Assembly (NCBI GenBank): GCA_048882485.1 | Contig: JBHLRP010000071.1 | Span: 1 to 12,782 of the forward strand | Reading direction: 5' to 3' | Length of the DNA: 12,782 bases | From: Candidatus Thorarchaeota archaeon | GTDB taxonomy: Archaea; Asgardarchaeota; Thorarchaeia; Thorarchaeales; Thorarchaeaceae | Shown here: piece by piece, positions 1,199 through 12,728 of the stretch | Layout: each line of letters begins with the position of its first letter | How positions within the stretch are numbered: the stretch's first letter is position 1 | Made by a program: the position numbers and the translations under genes | Notes under the pieces: model-generated | Database searches by the model: none | What the model saw: only the letters and a program-made list of their open reading frames with translations | Told to the model about the DNA's origin: nothing

Positions 1199-1250
1199 CC
1201 GTTCAAGAACGAACAGCCAACCACGACATGGGCCGGTAGATCAGCCCGGT

Positions 1251-1280
1251 TGAAACCCTGGTATCCAGGGTTTCCGGGAG
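1251..1280 (+). other. tRNA intron 1 (30 nt, D-loop, position ~20/21)
   Basis: Central helix CCCG/CGGG, bulges GT^T and AG^A, inner 10-bp hairpin GAAACCCTGG/CCAGGGTTTC. An alternative register (1252-1279) is possible but gives a less canonical D-loop. Confidence 0.85.
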
Positions 1281-1297
1281 AGATCGCCTCCTTGGCA

Positions 1298-1326
1298 CTT
1301 GTGACGCACTTCGCGTGCATCCAAAG
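1298..1326 (+). other. tRNA intron 2 (29 nt, canonical 37/38)
   Basis: Central helix TTGG/CCAA, bulges CA^C and AG^T, outer helix is the anticodon stem CCTCC/GGAGG. Confidence 0.92.
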
Positions 1327-1342
1327 TGGAGGAGGTCGCGAG

Positions 1343-1372
1343 ACTCAGCGTGAATTCCACGCAGAGCGCGAA
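1343..1372 (+). other. tRNA intron 3 (30 nt, T-arm, position 53/54)
   Basis: Central helix CGCG/CGCG, bulges AG^A and AA^T, inner helices CTC/GAG and GCGTG/CACGC. Removal restores GCGAG-TTCGAAT-CTCGC. Confidence 0.9.
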
Positions 1373-1424
1373 TTCGAATCTCGCCCGGTCCACCATCCTT
1401 TTCGTGGTTCCACGTTTCTATTGA

Positions 1425-3428
1425 CTATTCTCGTATCATCCTCACGTTTTTCTTGAGCAGAACCGTGAATAGGATTATAGTTGCTCCTACTCCGATTGCA
1501 ACTCCCAAAATGAGTGCCATCACTGGGTCGAAACCATGAATGGTTGTGCTTGCTGTTGTTGATGTAGTAGTAGCAGCTATCACTTCAACAGTAATGGAAA
1601 CAAAGAGCGTATGTCCATAGATGTCACTGACATAGACTCGCAGTCCATAAGTCCCCAATTCAAGGATGCCAACTGTACGAATTTGTCCTAACCAATCAAT
1701 TACAAAATGAATTGTATCATCTACCCACCAGTCTCCAATTCCTGAAGGGTCAGTCGCATCAAGATCGCACACATAGGTGGTGCCATACTCGATTGTCTGA
1801 TTCTGCGGTTGCTCACCCCATGCGGGAGCCAAAGTATCGACTACTGTTATTGCGAAGAGCCCCGTGAGTGTATTCCCCCGCGTGTCATTGACCCAGACCT
1901 GTACTCCATAAACTCCAACCGCAACAATACCAATTGATGTGACTTGTCCATCATTATCGATTGCAAAGTAAAGCGTGTCATTCAGCCACCAGGTATCCAA
2001 TCCAGAAACGTCTGTCGCATTCAAATAGTATCTAAGACTTGCTCCGCATTCGACAAGCTGATTCACAGGGGCTTCAAGCCAAGTAGGGGGAGATCCATCT
2101 TCGACGATTACAGTGAAGGTTTTTGACAGAGCAGTGCCTTCTGAATTGCTAACAGATACATGGATGCCGTACCTCTCTGGGAGGAGGATTGTCATGTTTG
2201 TAAGTACTCCAGATTGGTCGATAGCGAAATTGTCAGTGTCATTAATCCACCAATTATCCCAACCTCCGTAGATTGAGGCATTCAAATCATATCTTAGAGG
2301 CTCTCCAAAAGAGATCACTTGATCAACTGGAAATTCCAACCAAAATGGTGGTGAATCTGGTGGAGCCATAAGAGGATGCAAATCCTGATTTCCTGGAAAG
2401 GAGTAAGGAGTATCACCTACACCATTCTCATCTGTGTCATATCCATCATAGCCCGACCAGAAATTGTAGTCAAAGACATCGCCACTTCCCCCATCAGAAG
2501 CATGAGCAGCGGCGTTCGTTACGAAGACGTTCCACAGTATGTCGTTGAGATGACAAAATCCATCGAGGGAGATGCCAATGTTGTTGTTGTTGTAGGTGTT
2601 GTTCATCACTTTGTTGGAATCAGAAACTTGGATGTAGATGCCGTATTGACTATTGTTGCTTAAGGTGTTGTTCATTATTGTGTTGGAATGTGAGATTTGC
2701 AGGTTGATGCCGCTTTGACTATTGCCATTGCAGGTGTTGTTCATCATTATATTGGAATTTGCAACTTCAAGTCTGATGCTGTAGATGTGGTCATTGAAGT
2801 GGTTGCGCGCTATTGAATTTAATGATGAATACTGTAAGAAAATACCAAGCTGACTGGTGTCAAAGATGTTGTCTGACAAAGTGTTGGAATCGGAGTTATC
2901 GAGGTAGATGCCCACACTGTCATTGGTGAAAGAGCTGTTAGCCACTTCTATAAGTGATGAGAATCCAAGGTATATACCAGCATAGCTGTTGTTGCAAGTG
3001 TTGTTGACTAGCTTGCCGTAGGTGACATTCTCTAGGTAAATCCCAGCTCCGTTACCCGGTACCGAGTAATTAGCACCAGTGAGATTGGAATTACTTATAG
3101 TGAAGTTAACTCGCGTGTTACTGATGCTTATGCAGTTACCGAATGCACCACCAAGGTCAATGTCCAATCCATCGATTATGAACGGGTTCTCAGGAGAACC
3201 ATCCCCAGGCCATCCCTCTAGCAGGACTGTGTCCGAGAAGTTGGCATCTCCATCTATGACAACGGGAACATGCGGTGTATCAGCAGGAAATCCCCTGAAT
3301 TCCGGATTTGATACAATGACAATTGACCTAGTACTGTTATCATATAGGTCAGCAACATTCACAACACATCCTAGAACCAGGATGATTCCCAGAGATACAA
3401 ACCAATAGGCGAAATACGCCTCACGCAT
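1425..3428 (-). CDS. Cell-surface protein: right-handed parallel beta-helix (NosD/CASH-type) plus three ~87-aa Ig/cadherin-like repeats and a C-terminal membrane anchor
   Basis: N-terminal hydrophobic segment; GWPGDGSPENPFII; many GIYL..S..N.I.NN repeats; NosD-like end NFWSGYDGYDTDENGVGDTPY..DLHPL; three repeats starting PPFWLEFPVDQ, PPTWLEAPVNQ and APAWGEQPQNQ; Thr-rich linker; TM helix and basic tail. Confidence 0.9.
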   Translation of the reverse strand: MREAYFAYWFVSLGIILVLGCVVNVADLYDNSTRSIVIVSNPEFRGFPADTPHVPVVIDGDANFSDTVLLEGWPGDGSPENPFIIDGLDIDLGGAFGNCISISNTRVNFTISNSNLTGANYSVPGNGAGIYLENVTYGKLVNNTCNNSYAGIYLGFSSLIEVANSSFTNDSVGIYLDNSDSNTLSDNIFDTSQLGIFLQYSSLNSIARNHFNDHIYSIRLEVANSNIMMNNTCNGNSQSGINLQISHSNTIMNNTLSNNSQYGIYIQVSDSNKVMNNTYNNNNIGISLDGFCHLNDILWNVFVTNAAAHASDGGSGDVFDYNFWSGYDGYDTDENGVGDTPYSFPGNQDLHPLMAPPDSPPFWLEFPVDQVISFGEPLRYDLNASIYGGWDNWWINDTDNFAIDQSGVLTNMTILLPERYGIHVSVSNSEGTALSKTFTVIVEDGSPPTWLEAPVNQLVECGASLRYYLNATDVSGLDTWWLNDTLYFAIDNDGQVTSIGIVAVGVYGVQVWVNDTRGNTLTGLFAITVVDTLAPAWGEQPQNQTIEYGTTYVCDLDATDPSGIGDWWVDDTIHFVIDWLGQIRTVGILELGTYGLRVYVSDIYGHTLFVSITVEVIAATTTSTTASTTIHGFDPVMALILGVAIGVGATIILFTVLLKKNVRMIRE

Positions 3429-3540
3429 GAACAGTTTCTCCTCCGTTGCGAAGAACGTGATGAGAGTCTTTTATGCATATCACAAATCCCGATAGCCAAG
3501 TGTTATCGTCTTCGATCTCTCTCGTGATATTCTCCGTACA

Positions 3541-3588
3541 ATGCCAAAGTTTACTTATTAATGCCTAAGTTTGCCTAATAGTGCCAAG
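3541..3588 (+). repeat. Imperfect 20-nt tandem repeat (~2.4 copies)
   Basis: ATGCCAAAGTTTACTTATTA and ATGCCTAAGTTTGCCTAATA (16/20 identical), then GTGCCAAG. Confidence 0.5.
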
Positions 3589-3610
3589 AGCCTATGGAGT
3601 ACCAACTAAA

Positions 3611-3631
3611 CAAATCTCGCCCGGTCCACCA
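3611..3631 (+). repeat. tRNA-Ala 3'-end repeat R1
   Basis: CAAATCTCGCCCGGTCCACCA; the last 19 nt are identical to 1377-1395. Confidence 0.95.
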
Positions 3632-3676
3632 CTCTCTTTCGCAAGCCCAAAGGGGCCACAAAATCTGCATATAGAC

Positions 3677-3967
3677 TCATTTGATTGCCCAAATCATCAG
3701 TAGGATGAGCAATCCAAATAGTAGGTTCAATACTATTTGAATATGGAGAAATGATAAGAACCACAAATCAAAAGGCTGGTGCAGGAGAAATCCAGAGACA
3801 CCACCATAGCCCCATACCAAGTAGTTAGCAAAGGCATAGATAAAGAGAAAGGCAGTGCCCAAGCAAATTCTGAATGTCCTGCGCTCATTCAGAATCTCAT
3901 CAACCAAGTGTTTTACTTGCTCTTCATTAATGGCATGGCTTCTTTCCCCGTCTGCCATCATACTCAC
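3677..3967 (-). CDS. Small hypothetical membrane protein (2 predicted TM helices)
   Basis: 96-aa ORF with a charged N-terminus and two hydrophobic stretches. It fills the R1-R2 interval. The start may be one of the downstream Met codons. Confidence 0.7.
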   Translation of the reverse strand: MSMMADGERSHAINEEQVKHLVDEILNERRTFRICLGTAFLFIYAFANYLVWGYGGVSGFLLHQPFDLWFLSFLHIQIVLNLLFGLLILLMIWAIK

Positions 3968-4057
3968 TGAGTTCCAGGATGCAACTAGCTGTTGATGAGT
4001 TTTCCGTAATCAAATGAAACTGGTATTTGGCTACCATAGTTCTTGGTTAAACTCCTT

Positions 4058-4080
4058 TTCAAATCTCGCCCGGTCCGCTA
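4058..4080 (+). repeat. tRNA-Ala 3'-end repeat R2
   Basis: TTCAAATCTCGCCCGGTCCGCTA; 20/23 identical to 1373-1395. Confidence 0.93.
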
Positions 4081-4081
4081 T

Positions 4082-4684
4082 TCATTTTCCAGAGAAAATA
4101 TCCTGAGCAGAATCCTCAATATCACGCTTTGAGAAGACTTCTTCATTAGTGCCACCCCATGGTGATGATAACAGATTTGGACGTAGGAGAGGTATTAACA
4201 AAACAGCTAGAATTGAAACCAGTGGCAATGGAATCACAGCAGAGAAGTAGACCATTCCACCACTTGAAGCCCGGGGAACTGTCATCATTGGCAATGTCAT
4301 CAGGATTGCCAGAATTGTGACGAAAGCAACTCCTGCTGAATACCGGCCAATACTGGAATATTTTCCCTGCGCAAATCTGTACGACTGATATCCTATGTAG
4401 ACGTATGGCAGCCAATAGAAGATCATGATTAAAGCCATTGGAGTTGGTCCAATGTAAGAGACCCAGTCACTTTGGAGTGCAACCCATGTTGGTGCATAAA
4501 TAGCCAGTTGCTGAAACTCAGCCTCATTCAACCAGTCAACTAGATATGGAAGGAATAGTGAAAGGCCAAAAATGATCTTCGAAATCTTGATTCCTCTGGA
4601 TGTCGGTTCGAAAGGTAGTGCCCCACTCAAATAATGAATCCTCGTTTTAGAGCAGGAAAGAAAGGATATTAACTTTGTACTCAA
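4082..4684 (-). CDS. Hypothetical multi-pass membrane protein (about 4 TM)
   Basis: Four hydrophobic segments and an acidic C-tail. The start is uncertain: the track uses a TTG, and the first hydrophobic segment begins near KISKIIFGL (~4590). Confidence 0.7.
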   Translation of the reverse strand: MSTKLISFLSCSKTRIHYLSGALPFEPTSRGIKISKIIFGLSLFLPYLVDWLNEAEFQQLAIYAPTWVALQSDWVSYIGPTPMALIMIFYWLPYVYIGYQSYRFAQGKYSSIGRYSAGVAFVTILAILMTLPMMTVPRASSGGMVYFSAVIPLPLVSILAVLLIPLLRPNLLSSPWGGTNEEVFSKRDIEDSAQDIFSGK

Positions 4685-4838
4685 CTAGATGGATGGGTGT
4701 ACCTTGTTCTGCTTCCACCATCATCTGGAGTATGCTATGAAGAAAGGAACTAACACGGTTGTGATGGTTGCCATTAGAAAGCGCACAAGCAAGAAGGTTG
4801 GATACCCAGCTTATGCTCCTTTCAGATATTTCTTGAAG

Positions 4839-4864
4839 GAATTCAAATCTCGCCCGGTCCACCA
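4839..4864 (+). repeat. tRNA-Ala 3'-end repeat R3
   Basis: GAATTCAAATCTCGCCCGGTCCACCA; 25/26 identical to 1370-1395. Confidence 0.96.
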
Positions 4865-4967
4865 CTTCATTCTGTATTGCCAATTCGTCAAAAGATCCCA
4901 CTTGCTACAATGGACCGGTTTATGAACGAGTTGAGCTTGACGTGAAGGGTGGGAGATGTAAAGAATC

Positions 4968-5792
4968 TTGAAGATTGGCGCTGTCATTCGACCGGTGAAT
5001 CAGAACTACAACTTAGAAGAGATCAAGAACTTTGTGAATGCAGTTGAAGAACTAGGATTCGATTATCTGCTGGCATACGACATTGTCACAAAGACTGAAC
5101 ATTCACCACCGCCAACCAGCGAACCACTTGTCTTAATCAGTTATCTAGCCGCACTGACGAGCAAATTGGAGTTTGCTACGGGAGTCATAATTCTACCATC
5201 TAGACAGACGGTGTTGGTGGCCAAACAGGCAGCTGAAGTTGATCATTTTACTGAGGGGCGATTAAGACTCGGTGTGGCAGTTGGTTGGAATGAAAGAGAG
5301 TATCAGGTAATGGATTCTGACTTCACCTTGCGAGGAGAGAGGATCGAGGAGCAAATCGCAGTGATGCGGGAGCTATGGACTAATCCGACTATCACTTTCA
5401 AGGGGAAGTTTCATGATCTGAAGGATATTGGAATTGAGCCGTTGCCAGTGCAACGCCCAATTCCCATTTGGCTGGGTGGCTACGCTGATGTTGTCCTTCA
5501 GCGGATCGCCAGAATCGGGGATGGCTGGCTTGCTCACATTACAACGCCTGAATCAGCAATCCCCATTGTGGAGAAATTACATAGCCATATGGAAGAAGAA
5601 GACCGGAAGAAGAGTGACTTTGGTATCGGGGTTTGCTTGGATATGCACTTCTCTCATGATTGGGGAGAGTACATTCAGGCATGGACTGATTTGGGTGCCA
5701 CTCATTTTGATATTGATACTACAAGGGCGGGATTAAAGACCCCTAAAAATCACATCGAGATGGTTCAGAACTTCAAAGACGAGTGGTTGTAA
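4968..5792 (+). CDS. LLM-class (luciferase-like) oxidoreductase, probably F420-dependent
   Basis: MKIG..., EELGFD, EPLVLISYLAALTSKLEFATGVIILPSRQTVLVAKQAAEVD, GRLRLGVAVGWNEREY, PVQRPIPIWLGG and RIARIGDGW are typical LLM motifs. TTG start with GGGAG upstream. Confidence 0.92.
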   Translation: MKIGAVIRPVNQNYNLEEIKNFVNAVEELGFDYLLAYDIVTKTEHSPPPTSEPLVLISYLAALTSKLEFATGVIILPSRQTVLVAKQAAEVDHFTEGRLRLGVAVGWNEREYQVMDSDFTLRGERIEEQIAVMRELWTNPTITFKGKFHDLKDIGIEPLPVQRPIPIWLGGYADVVLQRIARIGDGWLAHITTPESAIPIVEKLHSHMEEEDRKKSDFGIGVCLDMHFSHDWGEYIQAWTDLGATHFDIDTTRAGLKTPKNHIEMVQNFKDEWL

Positions 5793-5802
5793 TTTCGTTC
5801 AT

Positions 5803-5828
5803 GAATTCAAATCTCGCACGGTCCACCA
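5803..5828 (+). repeat. tRNA-Ala 3'-end repeat R4
   Basis: GAATTCAAATCTCGCACGGTCCACCA; 24/26 identical to 1370-1395. Confidence 0.95.
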
Positions 5829-5992
5829 AATCTATTGTTCAGTCCATCATCATTTAGTTCCCATTCCGCTTTCTCAATGGTATTTGCCTCAAACCCAATC
5901 GCATAGCCATTCAAAGCAGCAATTGAGGCGTCCTGAAATTCACAATCCTAATATCGGGGGGCAGTGCTCAGATTGGATAGGAGATTGGGCCC

Positions 5993-8617
5993 ATGAGGAT
6001 TAGAGTATTCGCTTTCATGATTTTACTATGTGCTTTGATTTCGTTTCCAATTACGGGGTATGCTGATGAGGTGCCTGCTGAATTGAGATTTGATGATGTT
6101 GCATCAGGACCTTATGTGGACAAGTTGGTCTATAGAACAATTTCATCAGAAAGCAGTCGTGTTCAGGCTCTACTGGATAACGAGATTGACATTCTGGATG
6201 GCCCAATTGATTTCTCCTATATCTCGACTTTGAATTCATCACCTGAGGTCGAGTTGTCTTCTATTCTCAGAAATGGGTATGGGGTATACACAATTAATTG
6301 CGCCAAATACCCGCTGAGTATCTCTTCACTTAGGAGAGCTTTTGCATTAGCGCTTGACAAAGAACGAATTTCTACGGAAGTCTTAGGCGGAAAATCCGTT
6401 CTTCATGACTCCTTAGTACCGCTCGTAAATCCCTTCTGTGCTGAGAATTCGTTGCCGGGCGATTACTATTCGAATTACACAAATGAAGCGAATCAACTCC
6501 TTGATGCTGCGGGATTCTTAGACATCAATGCTGATGGATTCCGAGAAGCACCAGACGGGACGACGTTCCAGATTACCATTGAATATGGTGTCACCCAGCC
6601 TCGGGCCGATTCAATTGCAGTACTTGCAGCAGATGCGTTATCAGCGATAAGCATCAATGTTGATATTTCGCCTGGAGATTCCTATGAGATCCTTTACCGA
6701 CTCTACAGTCATGGGGATTTTGATGTTATTTTCGGGGGTCGCAATTTCTATGACTTTGGCCTTCAGTGGTTGGAGCAGTACTACGATTCCTCCCATAACC
6801 ATCCAGGCGAGAATCCCTCTAACTATATCAACGCCACATTAGATGCCTACATGGATATTTTACTAACTAGCACCAACTATATGGAAATCTACGATGCTGC
6901 GGAAGAGATACAGAAGATACTCTTCGAAGATAGCCCTGAGATTGTCCTGTATGAGGAATTTTCCTACTCTGCCTATAGAAAAGACCGCTTTGAAGGTCAC
7001 GTGGTTGATGTTGTCAATAATGTCGAAAATGAATGGACAAATCTCAATGCACACCTCACGCCCATAGATGGTGGCCCGTTTACAGGAACTCTTAGAATCG
7101 GCATGAGTGTCTTTCCGAGTACACTCAACCCAATGTTGGCGACTCATTATAGCGACATGGTACTTGACAATCTATTCGCGCATCTTATCAAAATAGGTCC
7201 AGATGGAGAATTCAGGACGGATCTAGCTGGAACCTATCTGATGGAAACTCATGCAGAAAATGCTTCAATTCCAGCAGGCTATATGCGATTTACATTTGAT
7301 ATTCTGAGTAATGGATCCTGGAGTGATGGGACTTCTGTGACAGCTGACGATGTAGCATACTCGTTCAATTATTACATGAATGCTGGTGGAGGGCAATTGG
7401 CTGGGTATCTTGAAGATATGACACTTGCCACTGCTCCAAATTCAAGCCGAGTCATTGTTGAATTCAACATTGAGTCATACTGGTATCTCTACAGTTTCGC
7501 AAACTTGCCCATCCTTCCACGGTCTATTCTGGAGAGCCTCGGGCCAACAGGATGGAGTTCTTGGGACCCAGTTTTCACCGATTCCTTCCTAACATGCGGT
7601 CCTTTCATTCCAACATCTTATTCCTTAGACAACTATGTTGAGCTATCTCAAACTACACTCTATCATCATAGAGTCCGAGGCACTGGATCGGCATTACCTT
7701 TTGCGTCAGGGCCTACTGATATGACAATCATAAACGGGACCATGGGAAGTTCCATTGGCTGGAGCATTTCTGATGATAATGCATTGGCTTATCGTATTTT
7801 GAAAAATGGAACTGCAATTGTGGGTGAATATTATGACACTTCCACCGTTGAACTGGACATTGACACCTATCTCACTGAATATGGCGTCCACAATTTCACT
7901 ATTCAAGTTCAAGATTGGGATGCTCAGATTAGTATTGATACTATCCTTGTCGAGTTCCTACCGGACACATTTGCCCCTGATGTGGCTGGACCTGATGACT
8001 TCCTCACCTTCGATGTGTTCTCAAGCGGAACTCTGATTAGCTGGACTGTCTTCGATCATAATCCTGCGAGCTATAACATCCTAGTTGATGGTATAGTTGT
8101 CGCGTCTGAAGACTGGACAAGTGCGATGATTTCGATAAGTCATGATATCGGAGTACTCAGCGCTGGAGAATATAACTTCACAATCTATCTGGTTGATGAC
8201 AAAGGTTACAGCTCAACCGACACTGTGATTGTGACAGTGGTTTCAGATGAAGTTCCACCTGTGATTGACTCGCCAGATGACGTAGTCATGAATTTTGGTG
8301 AACTGGACCAAAAGATACAGTGGAATGCAACTGACTTGTACCCCTATACCTTCACAATATACCTGAACTCTATCGTAAATGTCACAGGTCCTTGGGAATC
8401 AGGCGTACCAATCATCTTCAGTCTTGATGGACTTGAGGCTGGTTCCAATAATGTGACCATTGAGATAAGAGATGTTGTCAACAATGCAGTCGTGGATACA
8501 GTGAATGTACTTGTACATCCTCCAGGGTATATACCTCCCGAGGTGCTGTTCTTGACGATTGCAGGGGCCTCAGCGGTTGTTGTAATTGTTGTGATAATAC
8601 TCAAGGTTCGGAAATGA
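5993..8617 (+). CDS. ABC transporter family-5 (OppA/DppA-like) substrate-binding protein, apparently circularly permuted, with three Ig-like repeats and a C-terminal TM anchor
   Basis: Signal peptide; LRRAFALALDK, ANQLLDAAGF.D...DGFR, TLNP, WSDGTSVTADDVAYSF and CGPF motifs; three ~95-aa repeats (GPTD, GPDD, SPDD ... W...D); TM helix then KVRK; AGGAG upstream. Confidence 0.9.
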   Translation: MRIRVFAFMILLCALISFPITGYADEVPAELRFDDVASGPYVDKLVYRTISSESSRVQALLDNEIDILDGPIDFSYISTLNSSPEVELSSILRNGYGVYTINCAKYPLSISSLRRAFALALDKERISTEVLGGKSVLHDSLVPLVNPFCAENSLPGDYYSNYTNEANQLLDAAGFLDINADGFREAPDGTTFQITIEYGVTQPRADSIAVLAADALSAISINVDISPGDSYEILYRLYSHGDFDVIFGGRNFYDFGLQWLEQYYDSSHNHPGENPSNYINATLDAYMDILLTSTNYMEIYDAAEEIQKILFEDSPEIVLYEEFSYSAYRKDRFEGHVVDVVNNVENEWTNLNAHLTPIDGGPFTGTLRIGMSVFPSTLNPMLATHYSDMVLDNLFAHLIKIGPDGEFRTDLAGTYLMETHAENASIPAGYMRFTFDILSNGSWSDGTSVTADDVAYSFNYYMNAGGGQLAGYLEDMTLATAPNSSRVIVEFNIESYWYLYSFANLPILPRSILESLGPTGWSSWDPVFTDSFLTCGPFIPTSYSLDNYVELSQTTLYHHRVRGTGSALPFASGPTDMTIINGTMGSSIGWSISDDNALAYRILKNGTAIVGEYYDTSTVELDIDTYLTEYGVHNFTIQVQDWDAQISIDTILVEFLPDTFAPDVAGPDDFLTFDVFSSGTLISWTVFDHNPASYNILVDGIVVASEDWTSAMISISHDIGVLSAGEYNFTIYLVDDKGYSSTDTVIVTVVSDEVPPVIDSPDDVVMNFGELDQKIQWNATDLYPYTFTIYLNSIVNVTGPWESGVPIIFSLDGLEAGSNNVTIEIRDVVNNAVVDTVNVLVHPPGYIPPEVLFLTIAGASAVVVIVVIILKVRK

Positions 8618-8627
8618 ACTAGCTAAA

Positions 8628-8646
8628 CGGGGGAATGCTTCCTCGT
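8628..8646 (+). terminator. Possible stem-loop after the SBP gene
   Basis: ACGGGGGA-ATGC-TTCCTCGT pairs with two G:U pairs, starting about 10 nt after the stop; no U-tract directly follows. Confidence 0.25.
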
Positions 8647-8657
8647 GGTCGTCCCCT

Positions 8658-8676
8658 ATTCTTGTCCAGTCCACCA
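8658..8676 (+). repeat. Degenerate tRNA-Ala 3'-end repeat R5
   Basis: ATTCTTGTCCAGTCCACCA versus AATCTCGCCCGGTCCACCA is 15/19 with no gaps, in the expected intergenic position. Confidence 0.7.
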
Positions 8677-8980
8677 TCTCAATTCATTCGAATGGATTTA
8701 ACATGCCATGACTCTTCATCAGAGCCTTGTGCTTGAATGCCATTAACCAAGAATATGACCAGATATCCCTTGCAAGCTGCATCCATGAAAGCAGTAACAG
8801 ATTCCGAATATGTGTTCAAGATACATCATTTCGGAGGTTAAATCTCAATTCCACACCAAGTTCTTCGGTTTTTGGCTCCATTTGTAGATTTACAGTTGAT
8901 TTCGGACCCAGTGAGTTTGCGCAAATAGATATTCTATCTGAGTGACTCATGCAATATTGAAGAGACCCAGAGGAAGATAG

Positions 8981-10486
8981 ATGATGAGAATCACGCGACA
9001 AACGAGAGCACTCTTGGTAATGAGTTTGGCCTTCCTCTTGCCGCTTACAGCAATCAGTATCTTCTATTATCGTCCGCTTTTTGCACCGGTATACTTGGAG
9101 CCATCCGACTCGATTGATGAGTTCGTTGAACAATTGGAAACAAAAATCTCTGCGTTACTGGAAACAAATACTGTCCCTGGAGCTGCCATTGCTGTCATTT
9201 CAAATAATCAGACCAATATCATTACAGCTGGTAGGTCAAACCTGTTTACAAGCGAGCCGCTGACACCGCACCATGTTTTTCAAATTGCATCCATGTCCAA
9301 GAGCCAGTGCGCACTTGCGATTATGAAATTGATGCAAGATGGATTGATTCTACTTGATGCGCCCGTAGAGTGGTATCTGACAAGGTGGTCATTTCCGGAT
9401 TCTCAATACAACACCTCAGGTGTGACAGTTCGACGAATACTATGCCATGCAGCCGGTATTTCTTTGGAGGGGGTCTCAGGAGGGTTCAGCCCGGATGATG
9501 TGCCTACAATTGAGGACGCATTGACTGATTCAGGAGTGAGTTTAATCTACGAGCCGGGGAGTGTCTTCTCATACTCCGGGGGCGGATATGGAATTCTGCA
9601 ATTGCTCATAGAAGAGGTCAGCGGGATGAGCTATGACGAGTATCTACAGTCAGAAGTATTTGAACCTCTGAATATGTCAGATACTGCGACTGGTTGGGAT
9701 TCATCTATTGAGGACCATCTTGCTGTGGGATACAGTAACATGCTTCTGCCTATTATTCGAACCTATCCTTCAATGAAGGCTGCAGCTGCGCACTACTCAA
9801 GTATCGAAGACATGGCAAAATGGGTGAACCATCTTCTTGTCGGCCAGCCAGTGGTTAATACAACAAATATGCTAGCGATGTACACACCGCAATGGGGTGA
9901 ATCATGGGGTTGGACTCTGGGCTTCAACTACAAGATGCTTAGCAATGGAATACTCACATTAGGTCATGGTGGTGATAATTGGGGCTATCATGGTGCATAT
10001 CGTTTCGCACCCTAAGATGGAGAGGCGATTATAGTTCTAACAAATGGTGATCGAGGGGCCGCATTTGTAACAGAGCTGTTGCATCATTGGGAAACTATTA
10101 TTGAAGGAGGAGATCTGGAAATCCTGTGGGAAGACCAGAATCAAGCCTACGGACAGACATTCCTCTATGAGATGATTACAATAGTCGGCTTTGTGACTCT
10201 GTTGCTGCTTGCCTGGAATCGAGGTTTCATTGTTTTCTCTCGAAGTGCAGAACAAAAGAGGTCTGGAGAAAAGAAATGGTTCAGAAGAATTTTATCAGTC
10301 ATGTGCGTTTTGGTGATTATTATATTCTTCATATATTGGGGATATACACCATTGAGCCCCATATCTTACGGACCCATTAGCTATGTCTGGACAGTCATTG
10401 CTACTCTCACATGGCTGACTTGGACATCAGTGACCTTTCAGCAATTCGATTTAGTTTCGGAAAAGACAACATTGAAGACATCGTAG
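8981..10486 (+). pseudogene. Membrane-anchored serine hydrolase (beta-lactamase class C/AmpC-like family) interrupted by one in-frame TAA at 10013-10015
   Basis: SxxK in FQIASMSK, TVRRILCHAAG, PGSVFSYSGGGY, GHGG. ORFs 8981-10015 and 10079-10486 are in the same frame, and read-through gives YRFAP*DGEAIIVLTNGDRG (the family's terminal IVLTN strand) followed by about three TM helices. Confidence 0.85.
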
Positions 10487-10491
10487 CAACA

Positions 10492-10506
10492 TCGAATCTC
10501 GCCCGG
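10492..10506 (+). repeat. Truncated tRNA-Ala 3'-end repeat R6
   Basis: TCGAATCTCGCCCGG is an exact 15-nt match to 1374-1388, 5 nt after the hydrolase stop. Confidence 0.88.
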
Positions 10507-10597
10507 ATAGTCACTTCTATTTCTTCGGATAGTACAATCATTTCATAGACTGTAGTCTTTTATCCATCGGTATTGTTCTGCATCTTGAGGTGTTCGG

Positions 10598-11089
10598 GTG
10601 GCAAGTGAAAGTGTGGGCACAAAGCCTACGAGGACTGGCAGAGATTATACCTATTTTGCCATTGTGATTCTCATAGGATCTCTCCTTTTGCTCAGCCCAG
10701 TAATTGCACAGTGGATGAATGCCAACGTGGTTCCTACCGAATATCAGGGCCTTATCCTATTAAGAGGAGAAGTTGCAAATTGGCACTCTGGAGCACTTCT
10801 ACTCACCTATGATGATGGAATCAAGGACCGATGGACGATTGATGGATACCAAGACTATACGGATTTAGATGAAACGCATCCACTATACGGGTGGATATCG
10901 TGGGGCCGACCTAGCCGGAACTTCACACGTACCGAAACTCTCACACTGGAGTATCACTGTTCTGGATTAGGCATGACAATCGGACCTGTCACCTTCGAAT
11001 CAGATTCGTCGCAGATACTCTATTCTAACCAAGACCTTCCTGAAGCTCCAGATGGGCTATGGATTACATGGATTACGTCACATCCATAG
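10598..11089 (+). CDS. Hypothetical protein with an N-terminal TM helix and a small extracellular domain
   Basis: 163-aa ORF, GTG start preceded by GAGGTG and an upstream TTTTAT; hydrophobic FAIVILIGSLLLLSPVIA. Confidence 0.75.
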   Translation: MASESVGTKPTRTGRDYTYFAIVILIGSLLLLSPVIAQWMNANVVPTEYQGLILLRGEVANWHSGALLLTYDDGIKDRWTIDGYQDYTDLDETHPLYGWISWGRPSRNFTRTETLTLEYHCSGLGMTIGPVTFESDSSQILYSNQDLPEAPDGLWITWITSHP

Positions 11090-12520
11090 CAGCTGTGTGA
11101 TCATCATTCTGAGGGGCTGGAGTTCAAATCTCGTCCGATCCGCCATCTCTATCCTGATCGGTTGATCTAATCTTGTCATTATTTGACTCCCGGCTTCCAC
11201 AGACTCCACAGATAGAAACTGCTGTCCGGGGGCTGCGTATTCCACAACTCCTCCAACCATTGTCATTAGTACCTTTATGTCAGCAAGGGTGTTCTCGGGA
11301 ACTGTCAGTGGATTATCTGAAAGGATTACTAGGTCTGCGAATTTGCCCACTTTAATGCTCCCCTTGATGTCTTCTTGAAACGTGCCGTAGGCTGCGTCAA
11401 TTGTAATGAGCCGCAGAGCTTGTTCCACGCTAAGAGTCTGGTTTAACATCCAATCTGTGGGTGTAAGCCCCAGTCCACCAACCCTTGTGACAGCACTAGA
11501 GACCGCATACATTGCTGACCTCTCCATTGTCCCCGGAAACCAAGGAAAGTCAGTACTGCCTTGTGATGGTATTCCAGCTTCAAGAATATCTCTCCATCTA
11601 CCTGCTAGGTGTGAGTAATTCTGCAGAGCTGGAGATGATTCTGCCTCATTCCAATCAGAGTTAATCCATGTGAATTGAAAAGTAGCAATAATTCCTAGAT
11701 CAGCCAGCCTCTGTATCTGGTCGTTTCTTAGTAGGACAAGGTGTTCGATACGGTGGCGATACTGTTGGTTCGATTGCCCGTCCAAAGCCGATTCCAGAGC
11801 ATTTAGAACAATGTCAGTCGCATTATCGACCAAACTGTGAATGGCAATCTGGAAACCTGATTCATGAGCCTCTTGCACTAATGAATCCAATTCAGTCTGA
11901 GAAAAGTAGGGAAGCCAAGTGGAATCATACCAACTGTCCATAAAGATCTTCACTCCTGCTATCCTCAACTTAGAGCTGTATTCCTGCCCGGGTTGATAGG
12001 CCTGATACCAATTGCCGAACCTATCAAACTGCCAGCTCAATGGAAGATAGGCATTAACGCGAATGCGAAGCTTGTCCTGTTGATCTAAAGTTATGAGCCC
12101 ATCCAATCGTTCCTGATTCACAAAGAGTTCGGAAATGCTGGTCCATCCAGAACTAAGTACCGAGTCAATCACTTCATCTGCCGTTGATTGGTTCACATAA
12201 CTCCGATCACCTATATGATGAGAATGAGCATCAATGAAACCAGGTAGAAGTGTCCTTCCTTCAAGATCAATGAATTGGGTATTTGGTCCTGCCGTCGCAA
12301 GGATGTCATTCTCATCACCTACAGCGATGATATTCTCACCTTGGATAGCGAGTGCCTCGACCTTTGCTGGGGATTGCTCCATAGTCAGAATTTCACCATT
12401 ATGTATGATTATATCTGGTGAATCATTCCAGAATCCTTGTGAAACAAGATACAAGAGAGACACTAGCAAAATCGCGAGCACAACAGACGTAATTACAAGC
12501 AATCCGCGTCGTTTCATCAA
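11078..12520 (-). CDS. Amidohydrolase (amidohydrolase_3, YtcJ-like) with an N-terminal membrane anchor
   Basis: DLEGRTLLPGFIDAHSH, GVKIFMD, FQIAIH, HRIEH, GSTDFP and KGSIKVGKFADLVILSDNPL; AGGAG upstream of the start. Confidence 0.92.
   Translation of the reverse strand: MMKRRGLLVITSVVLAILLVSLLYLVSQGFWNDSPDIIIHNGEILTMEQSPAKVEALAIQGENIIAVGDENDILATAGPNTQFIDLEGRTLLPGFIDAHSHHIGDRSYVNQSTADEVIDSVLSSGWTSISELFVNQERLDGLITLDQQDKLRIRVNAYLPLSWQFDRFGNWYQAYQPGQEYSSKLRIAGVKIFMDSWYDSTWLPYFSQTELDSLVQEAHESGFQIAIHSLVDNATDIVLNALESALDGQSNQQYRHRIEHLVLLRNDQIQRLADLGIIATFQFTWINSDWNEAESSPALQNYSHLAGRWRDILEAGIPSQGSTDFPWFPGTMERSAMYAVSSAVTRVGGLGLTPTDWMLNQTLSVEQALRLITIDAAYGTFQEDIKGSIKVGKFADLVILSDNPLTVPENTLADIKVLMTMVGGVVEYAAPGQQFLSVESVEAGSQIMTRLDQPIRIEMADRTRFELQPLRMMITQLLWM
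11120..11145 (+). repeat. tRNA-Ala 3'-end repeat R7
   Basis: GAGTTCAAATCTCGTCCGATCCGCCA; 19/23 identical over the 1373-1395 equivalent. Confidence 0.85.
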
Positions 12521-12610
12521 GATGTCTCCTTGTTTCTAACCAAGCGGATTACTGGTATCCGAAGTTGGCTAATAATCATCCGTTCGAGTGTCCCTTGATT
12601 TCTTCAGAAA

Positions 12611-12638
12611 GGAGGCGGCATGAGTTCAAATCTCATCC
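12611..12638 (+). repeat. Degenerate tRNA 3'-half remnant R8 (T-arm)
   Basis: GGAGGCGGCATGAG-TTCAAAT-CTCATCC aligns to spliced GGAGGAGGTCGCGAG-TTCGAAT-CTCGCCC. The acceptor end is lost. Confidence 0.65.
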
Positions 12639-12673
12639 TAGAATTAGGAGAATTTCAATTGCTTAGAAGAATG

Positions 12674-12703
12674 TGATACCCTGGCTAAATAGCCAGGGTA
12701 TCA
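12674..12703. repeat. Perfect 14-bp inverted repeat, possible terminator of the incoming minus-strand gene
   Basis: TGATACCCTGGCTA-AA-TAGCCAGGGTATCA followed by an A-run (a T-run on the minus strand), about 25 nt past the stop at 12729. Confidence 0.6.
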
Positions 12704-12728
12704 AAAAATGAACTATAGCGAGTCCGAT

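Follow-up and report, generated by a model that had tools for sequence, protein, structure and literature searches.

Does the order of genes in a row of cassettes behind a transfer RNA (tRNA) gene record the order of their arrival? The question is raised by contig JBHLRP010000071.1 of a Candidatus Thorarchaeota archaeon (assembly GCA_048882485.1), which we analyzed over its entire length of 12,782 nucleotides (nt) and refer to below as the window. Here a tRNA-Ala(GGC) gene (positions 1230-1395, plus strand) is followed by eight copies of its own 3' end, R1 to R8, with which eight one-gene modules alternate. A preliminary description of this DNA held that new units enter at the tRNA and push older ones outward, giving a chronological record comparable to that of clustered regularly interspaced short palindromic repeats (CRISPR) or of an integron. 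We conclude that positions 1230-12647 probably represent a cassette array in which entry occurs mostly at the tRNA, the displaced repeats decay in place and cassettes are lost from repeat to repeat. The polarity, which is partly supported, is a tendency upheld by three independent lines of evidence and not a strict timeline.

The array and its displaced tRNA ends

Contig C71, of which the window is the entire sequence, belongs to a metagenome-assembled genome (MAG), G000, of 3.96 Mb in 157 contigs (90.5% complete, 5.8% contamination). The names borne by homologues of its proteins assign it to the Thorarchaeota. The tRNA gene that anchors the array has the G3:U70 pair, an encoded CCA and three introns, and its last exon (1373-1395), running from the T-loop to the CCA, is the 23-nt unit that is repeated downstream. 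An ungapped scan of both strands with these final 23 nt placed R1 at 3609-3631, R2 at 4058-4080, R3 at 4842-4864, R4 at 5806-5828, R5 at 8654-8676, R6 at 10491-10513, R7 at 11123-11145 and R8 at 12625-12647, all on the plus strand and downstream of the tRNA. The identities given earlier for R1 to R8 (20, 20, 22, 21, 16, 17, 19 and 11 of 23 positions, respectively) were reproduced exactly. Chance matches reach 14/23 at most, on whichever strand, so that R1 to R7, at 16-22/23, are real. A score of 11/23 is reached by more than 100 positions and R8 is thus at chance level as a 23-mer. It aligns positionally with the terminal repeat of a related genome, G005 (L029:1681, 16/23), and in the window it retains its left 14 nt alone, TTCAAATCTCATCC. 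R8 therefore appears credible as a truncated terminal copy solely through its position, and is weak as an independent data point. Core DNA comes after it, and the sequence following C71 is syntenic with the core of G005, which sets the end of the array at about 12647.

Among 78 displaced copies, positions 2-23 are conserved at 83-96% and the edges are sharp. Upstream of them lies a weak CGAG, corresponding to the 5' strand of the T-stem, and downstream a G-poor pyrimidine trailer. Within the window, the genes of the eight modules lie, in order from the tRNA, on the strands - - - + + + + -.

Repeat decay with distance from the tRNA

Taken by itself, the trend in the window is not beyond chance: the Spearman correlation of identity with rank is -0.71 (p = 0.05) with R8 and -0.56 (p = 0.19, n = 7) without it. 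Arrays built on the same tail occur in relatives from the genus and the family, and the regression of repeat identity on rank over many arrays, which the preliminary description had proposed, bears out the trend. Kendall's S was summed over arrays and compared with permutations within arrays, the tRNA itself being excluded. Over the full set of 16 arrays (93 copies), the farther a copy lies from the tRNA, the more mismatches it tends to have (p = 2e-4), and 12 of these arrays have a positive S. The test gives p = 0.01 when the last copy of each array is removed, p = 0.04 for anchored arrays only, and p = 0.004 without the window, G005 and C132, a 3869-nt contig of the same MAG. For the 13 tRNA-Ala arrays (71 copies), mismatches likewise rise with rank (p = 1.5e-4), more strongly in the right, acceptor-side half (p = 1e-4) than in the left half (p = 0.009).

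The copy at rank 1 has a perfect right half in 8 of 9 anchored arrays and often an imperfect left half; R1 itself has a perfect right half and, in its left half, AAC instead of TTC. A perfect right half at rank 1 is expected if that half was the tRNA's own end until the latest insertion. In L063, a locus of MAG GCA_048882765.1, the mismatches from the tRNA outward number 0, 1, 2, 7 and 3. Lineages with flanks 87-96% identical show 1-4 differences per 23 positions in their orthologous distal copies, so the copies are unconstrained and decay in place is real. The degenerate R5, for example, differs at 3 positions from its G005 orthologue, which scores 15/23. R7 carries a G-to-A change (CCGATCC) common to G000, G005, C132 and L063, which thus predates their split. 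Two properties of the cassettes in the window were also compared with rank: their spread in the genus increases outward (rho 0.79), and their composition becomes less foreign, a change that agrees with the prediction without being significant (rho -0.62).

Other tRNA tails are multiplied in G000 as well, on contigs C82, C40, C63, C20, C26, C58 and C103; on C82, 12 co-oriented copies of a tRNA-Gly-type tail extend over 9 kb. This tail was tried as a replicate and set aside, since few arrays of it occur outside G000 among the 26 family genomes sampled.

Conserved distal cassettes and proximal turnover

G000, G005 and L063 are about equally distant, with 91-93% identity in the adjacent core; a second core stretch gives about 94% between G000 and G005. 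The DNA past the array of the window is syntenic with G005 for 16 kb at 90-93% identity. We named the cassettes a1-a4 and S5-S8 in the window, b1-b6, b8 and b9 in G005, and x, y and z in other loci. Read from the tRNA, the window has a1 to a4, then S5 and S6, then S7 and S8, and then the core; G005 has b1 to b6, S5 and S6, b8 and b9, S7 and S8, and the core; and L063 has z, a3, a2 and y, followed by S7, S8 and the core. S7 and S8 are thus present in all three lineages, at about core-level identity and adjoining syntenic core, and sharing becomes patchier toward the tRNA, where a1 and b1-b5 are each found in a single lineage. This is the outcome, distal cassettes shared and proximal ones specific, that had been predicted from polar entry. 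The amidohydrolase cassette borders the core as the last of the series in G000, G005 and L063; in G004 it is likewise last, and a giant ORF (open reading frame) follows.

Two further loci carry parts of the same series: the a4 end, b6, x with part of b9, and S8 in C132; and S6, x and b9 in genome G002. The window, C132, G005 and G002, and these alone, are collinear: each is a subset of a single order, which is what polar addition combined with internal deletion predicts. Turnover next to the tRNA is also seen in the 60 nt past the CCA of tRNA-Ala(GGC), which are unrelated in 36 of 36 genome pairs, including G000 and G005; the corresponding 60 nt past tRNA-Ala(CGC) are 88-97% identical among G005, G002 and G011. 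The DNA upstream of the tRNA is not conserved between genomes, and orthology of the locus is therefore demonstrable only through the distal core flank.

Hybrid repeats and the exchange of cassettes

An all-against-all comparison of the arrays shows that homology begins and stops at repeats and is always co-oriented. The same modules recur at other ranks, at other loci and in other genera, and cassette pairs are often 10-20 percentage points more similar than core DNA. We also sorted cassette pairs as transferred or inherited by comparison with core identity; this gave no clean pattern of rank, the pairs more similar than the core lying at ranks 1-6.

The junctions themselves are informative. 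In R6 the left part corresponds to that of one G005 repeat (L010:12890) and the right part, with its trailer, to that of another (L010:15299), and the two G005 cassettes that lie between these repeats are absent from the window, a precise insertion or deletion. The exchange point falls within ATCTCGCCCGG, and R6 is a deletion or insertion scar. Its derived right half (GGATAGTCA) and trailer are identical in the window and L063, where they precede S7, and the left halves differ between the two along with the upstream cassette. Left-end variants of the repeat, such as ACC or ATCG, likewise go with the upstream cassette, ACC with the cassette common to L015 and L016.

A mechanism of the following kind could produce such junctions. 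Each cassette, if circularized, would be a unit that carries one complete site, and a trans-acting site-specific recombinase may exchange it within the conserved core ATCTCGCCCGG. The left part of a displaced copy would then derive from the upstream cassette, and the right part with the pyrimidine-rich trailer from the downstream one. New or re-inserted cassettes would enter mainly, and perhaps only, at the tRNA itself, each providing a new acceptor end and displacing the old one outward. Displaced copies would subsequently evolve free of constraint, and deletion from repeat to repeat would remove cassettes, leaving the oldest fixed beside the core genome.

Polar entry weighed against its alternatives

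Several findings weigh against entry mainly at the tRNA, or reduce the force of the evidence for it. The arrays in the rank test come from related genomes and so are not fully independent, and the existence of hybrid repeats means that identity to the tail mixes cassette-borne variants, deletion scars and in-place decay. At R4, homology in S5 begins 14 nt past the CCA, which puts the exchange outside the core. The order of a2 and a3 is reversed in L063, a 91%-identical relative (reverse strand, 244-2060); such a swap would require cassettes to be excised and to re-enter, as a circle of two cassettes might do by way of its other site. For cassette y, which follows a3 and a2 there, neither G000 nor any of the loci contains a match. 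The age of a2 and a3 equals that of the three-way split, so a proximal cassette need not be a recent one in absolute terms. In the more diverged genomes G009, G014 and G007 the order of cassettes is shuffled, and the amidohydrolase cassette is first in G007 and internal in G014. The view of the preliminary description that new units enter at the tRNA is thus supported as a tendency; a strict chronology of the CRISPR-leader kind is not, given the scar at R6, the a2/a3 swap, the hybrid repeats and the perfect copies that occur deep in arrays.

Cassettes might instead enter at any copy that is still good, the tRNA being merely the one copy that selection keeps perfect, while far copies decay, go silent and stay, with cassette-borne variants and deletion scars adding noise to the gradient. 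This would account for the 23/23 copies deep in arrays, distal to degenerate ones (in G004, G020, G005 and C82 perfect copies lie distal to 16/23 copies), for the presence of mobile cassette families at ranks 1 to 6, and for the arrays of G018 and C40, which have no gradient. Four arrays of other tRNAs or genera (G018, C82, C40 and G020), taken alone, do not reach significance (p = 0.22). Insertion away from the tRNA would also fit what comes after S6, which is b8 in G005, x in G002 and S7 directly in the window, as well as the difference between C132 and the window in the interval from a4 to S8. Unlike the window, C132 passes from the a4 end and R4 (99% identity) to cassettes at 95% (b6) and 88% (b9) identity to G005, and then to the beginning of the amidohydrolase cassette (95%); the contig derives either from a strain variant or from a second locus. 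For all such internal differences in the close group, which are collinear subsets, deletion suffices; deletions may fit nearly any collinear pattern, however, so that some internal insertion could be hidden among them. What argues for the tRNA as the point of entry is that the single-lineage cassettes a1 and b1-b5 adjoin it, that the right half of the rank-1 copy, and not the left, is perfect in nearly every anchored array (8 of 9), and that every displaced copy has retained the tRNA-like pyrimidine trailer. We consider non-polar entry unlikely.

A lower probability still is assigned to homologous recombination, in which DNA from a related strain would replace the whole block from the tRNA to a shared cassette or repeat at once and no order of arrival would exist. 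It leaves unexplained why a 23-nt tail flanks each unit and why the repeat edges are sharp, and it does not predict a decay gradient inside proximal blocks and across unanchored arrays. The a2/a3 swap, too, would be better explained by the excision of two cassettes as a circle that came back in through its other site. Such replacement is nevertheless suggested by the near-star phylogeny of G000, G005 and L063 with its conflicting sharing (a2/a3 with L063, S5/S6 with G005, and b6/b9 between G005 and C132), by the identity of S5-S6 (95-96%, against 93% in the adjacent core), by exchange points that are not all at one position, and by the restriction of arrays to places where an array already exists, that is to tRNA-Ala(GGC) and not to tRNA-Ala(CGC) with the same tail. 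It is very improbable that the array is an assembly artefact, a strain chimera joined at repeats with a chance trend among eight copies: the contamination and 157 contigs of the MAG, a reading of C132 as an alternative path through the same array, the final 77 nt of C71, which are also the start of contig C63, and the lack of significance in the window alone would all be compatible with one, but the 23-nt repeats are shorter than this overlap, probably the assembly k-mer, so that the junctions should be spanned by assembled sequence, the junctions S5/S6, R6 right half/S7, S7/S8 and S8/core are seen again in genomes assembled independently, an array of this kind is present in G004, a genome in one contig, and the pooled test holds without the window.

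Among the opposing points we also count the choice of target and the enzyme. The tail of tRNA-Ala(CGC) is identical over the 23 nt, and over 33 nt in intron-less forms, and no array was found at this gene in 14 loci (among them L023-L028, L054, L055 and L058-L062). Arrays occur at tRNA-Ala(GGC) with or without the T-arm intron, and the TGC gene has a small-form array. The 23-nt site alone therefore does not define the target, and this contrast between two genes with identical tails, which the site cannot explain, is the sharpest new constraint on the system. No match to PF00589 (tyrosine recombinase) was obtained in G000, G005, G009 and G020, four of the six genomes searched, and no recombinase family is among the 25 most frequent Pfam families of the 106 ORFs from 13 arrays. 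The three PF00589 matches in G004 and G012 were considered as the array enzyme and rejected; their neighbourhoods contain neither a tRNA nor tRNA-tail repeats.

Returning to entry mainly at the tRNA, we tentatively suggest that Thorarchaeota possess a platform without an element-borne integrase that stacks single accessory genes at tRNA-Ala(GGC) and not at tRNA-Ala(CGC), with entry at the tRNA end and an enzyme that reads more than 23 nt. Were this so, the array would preserve, in part, the order in which the closest prokaryotic relatives of eukaryotes acquired genes horizontally. Entry at the tRNA would also mean that the machinery building the array recognizes the functional tRNA gene itself, as opposed to just any copy of the tail; this would narrow the search for the enzyme and allow the order of an array to be used, with care, for dating gene acquisitions in Asgard archaea.

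The tRNA gene and the end of the array

The three introns of the tRNA-Ala(GGC) gene lie at about 1246-1275 (D-loop), 1298-1327 (after position 37) and 1343-1372 (boundary of T-stem and T-loop). When the splice forms were enumerated, they were called as tRNA-Ala(ggc) with a canonical cloverleaf of 76-77 nt. ARAGORN and Rfam, the latter in both gathering and E-value modes, did not detect the tRNA at 1230-1395. The 5' and 3' exons are conserved among relatives. The T-arm intron (1343-1372) ends in GCGCGAA, which is similar to the 5' strand of the T-stem (GCGAG), and the GAA at its end is also present in the left flanks of R3 and R4. An insertion that took place long ago at the same site might have left this intron behind.

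Just past the truncated terminal repeat, positions 12677-12704 contain a perfect hairpin with a 10-bp stem (GATACCCTGG...CCAGGGTATC), followed by an A/T-rich run. Weak Rfam matches to SmY, ncr952 and sR14 were rejected as spurious. They fall on this hairpin, the source of the SmY and ncr952 matches, and on a coding region.

Cassettes of the window

The 106 ORFs collected from 13 arrays encode accessory enzymology of an ordinary sort, including amidohydrolases, flavodoxins, luciferase-like enzymes, GNATs and MarR. Cassette a1 (1396-3608, minus strand), at rank 1, encodes a NosD-like parallel beta-helix protein (ORF 1425-3428; Pfam and NCBIfam). It has the most atypical composition (96th percentile), and in 16 genomes of the genus there is no match to the whole cassette, only domain-level matches to paralogues. 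The NosD-like beta-helix domain has many paralogues across the genus, and inside the gene, at window positions 2584-2790, lie three tandem 69-nt units, 65-78% alike, which correspond to beta-helix repeats. The next two cassettes, a2 (3632-4057, minus strand) and a3 (4081-4841, minus strand), are both 89% identical to L063. The 96-amino-acid ORF of a2 (3677-3967) has no family match, and the 200-amino-acid ORF of a3 (4082-4684) belongs to a small Asgard-only family. Cassette a4 (4865-5805, plus strand) encodes a luciferase-like monooxygenase (ORF 4968-5792), relatives of which occur at 68-75% identity in arrays of G004, G009 and G007.

S5 (5829-8653, plus strand) encodes a family-5 solute-binding protein of 874 amino acids (ORF 5993-8617) and is 96% identical to G005, where the ORF is of equal length. 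Residues 32-232 of the protein match the C-terminal half of family-5 solute-binding proteins and residues at about 417-478 an N-terminal region, so that it looks, from its domain layout, like a truncated copy fused to a second copy. S6 (8677-10490, plus strand; 94% identical to G005 and 90% to G002) carries a gene of the beta-lactamase family with a membrane tail. This gene (8981-10486) is the interrupted gene that had been noted in the distal half of the array, and the interruption is confirmed: a TAA at 10013-10015 divides it into ORFs 8981-10015 and 10079-10486, where G005 has a Glu codon within an intact ORF of 515 amino acids. S7 (10514-11122, plus strand) contains a 163-amino-acid ORF (10598-11089) with no family match and is 93% identical to G005 and 89% to L063.

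The amidohydrolase of S8 (11146-12624, minus strand) is encoded by ORF 11078-12520, which reads through R7, so that the attachment (att) site overlaps the end of the gene (11078-11145) and the antisense of R7 forms part of the C-terminal tail. The preliminary description had counted this overrun as a sign of age. It is real, but amidohydrolase relatives at rank 1 in G005 and first on an unanchored contig of G016 also read through the tRNA tail, and the overrun is therefore a trait of the cassette family and not a mark of age. The antisense read-through frame is kept in two amidohydrolase subfamilies (...EM(A/V)D..RFE; window 11078-11145, L010:56-157 and L020:79-107). No recombinase domain was found in the ORFs of the window.

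Comparison with known systems

The same polar model has already been stated for the tycheposon islands at tRNA genes of Prochlorococcus (Hackl et al., bioRxiv 10.1101/2020.12.28.424599). As in those islands, an intact tRNA is found at the proximal end and partial tRNA copies lie between the stacked units; tRNA-Ala(GGC) is itself among the tycheposon targets. Tycheposons, however, are several kb in size with their own tyrosine recombinase and replication genes, whereas each Thorarchaeota unit consists of one accessory gene and measures 0.4-2.8 kb, neither the arrays nor most of the genomes yielded an integrase, and the host is an Asgard archaeon. The array also has other marks of a tandem-accretion island, namely an intact tRNA at one end, co-oriented 3' copies, variability that is greatest near the tRNA and a conserved distal end; an integrase encoded by the units was not seen in the window ORFs or in the 25 top Pfam families of the 106 array ORFs.

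Archaeal integrons use IntI and attC, and tRNA is not mentioned in their description (Ghaly et al. 2022, PMC9668308). The Thorarchaeota arrays resemble integrons in their one-gene cassettes with accessory functions, in the single site that each cassette would own when circular, in boundary sites that are hybrids of two cassettes, and in reordering. Entry favoured at one proximal site, with loss anywhere, may be a further resemblance, which the rank gradient and the proximal turnover support. They differ in the absence of IntI (no PF00589 match in G000) and in their boundaries, which are sharp-edged 23-nt tRNA tails and not attC hairpins, although no attC covariance model was applied. Furthermore, the cassette genes face both ways, so there is no common promoter, and distal sites decay instead of being maintained.

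Additive islands of Alteromonas have repeats of part of a tRNA after added cassettes, according to the sections of PMC4898812 drawn on here. As far as these and the corresponding sections of PMC5704250 describe, both these islands and the accretion of cis-mobilizable elements (CIMEs) with integrative and conjugative (ICE) or integrative and mobilizable (IME) elements involve integrase-less units between att copies, as well as high-identity cassettes common to different species. Within the same sections, the integrases of those systems are identifiable, whether encoded in cis or by a resident element, and a gradient of identity with rank is not reported. Compared with the systems as presented there, the Thorarchaeota arrays are longer (up to 13 units in G005 and 12 copies in C82) and are made up of single genes.

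Shared units of the Thorarchaeota arrays do not keep one order, as shown by the reversal of a2 and a3 in L063 and the shuffled series of G009, G014 and G007, and in this they differ from a CRISPR-like record.

The "suicidal" integrases of the SSV (Sulfolobus spindle-shaped virus) type in hyperthermophilic archaea reportedly use the 3' end of a tRNA as the att site, with the integrated DNA trapped and decaying in place; integration is said to split the integrase gene, so that its fragments flank the element. The Thorarchaeota cassette ORFs gave no integrase-related Pfam match, a result to be read with the limit that no profile-profile search for remote fragments was made.

A limited search of the Asgard literature returned no description of such tRNA-tail arrays. 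The principle of polarity is already known, having been published for bacterial tRNA islands, and the present work is a test and refinement of it and not the report of a new kind of system. New are the demonstration of polarity in integrase-less Asgard arrays, the anatomy of the hybrid repeats, and the specificity for tRNA-Ala(GGC) over tRNA-Ala(CGC).

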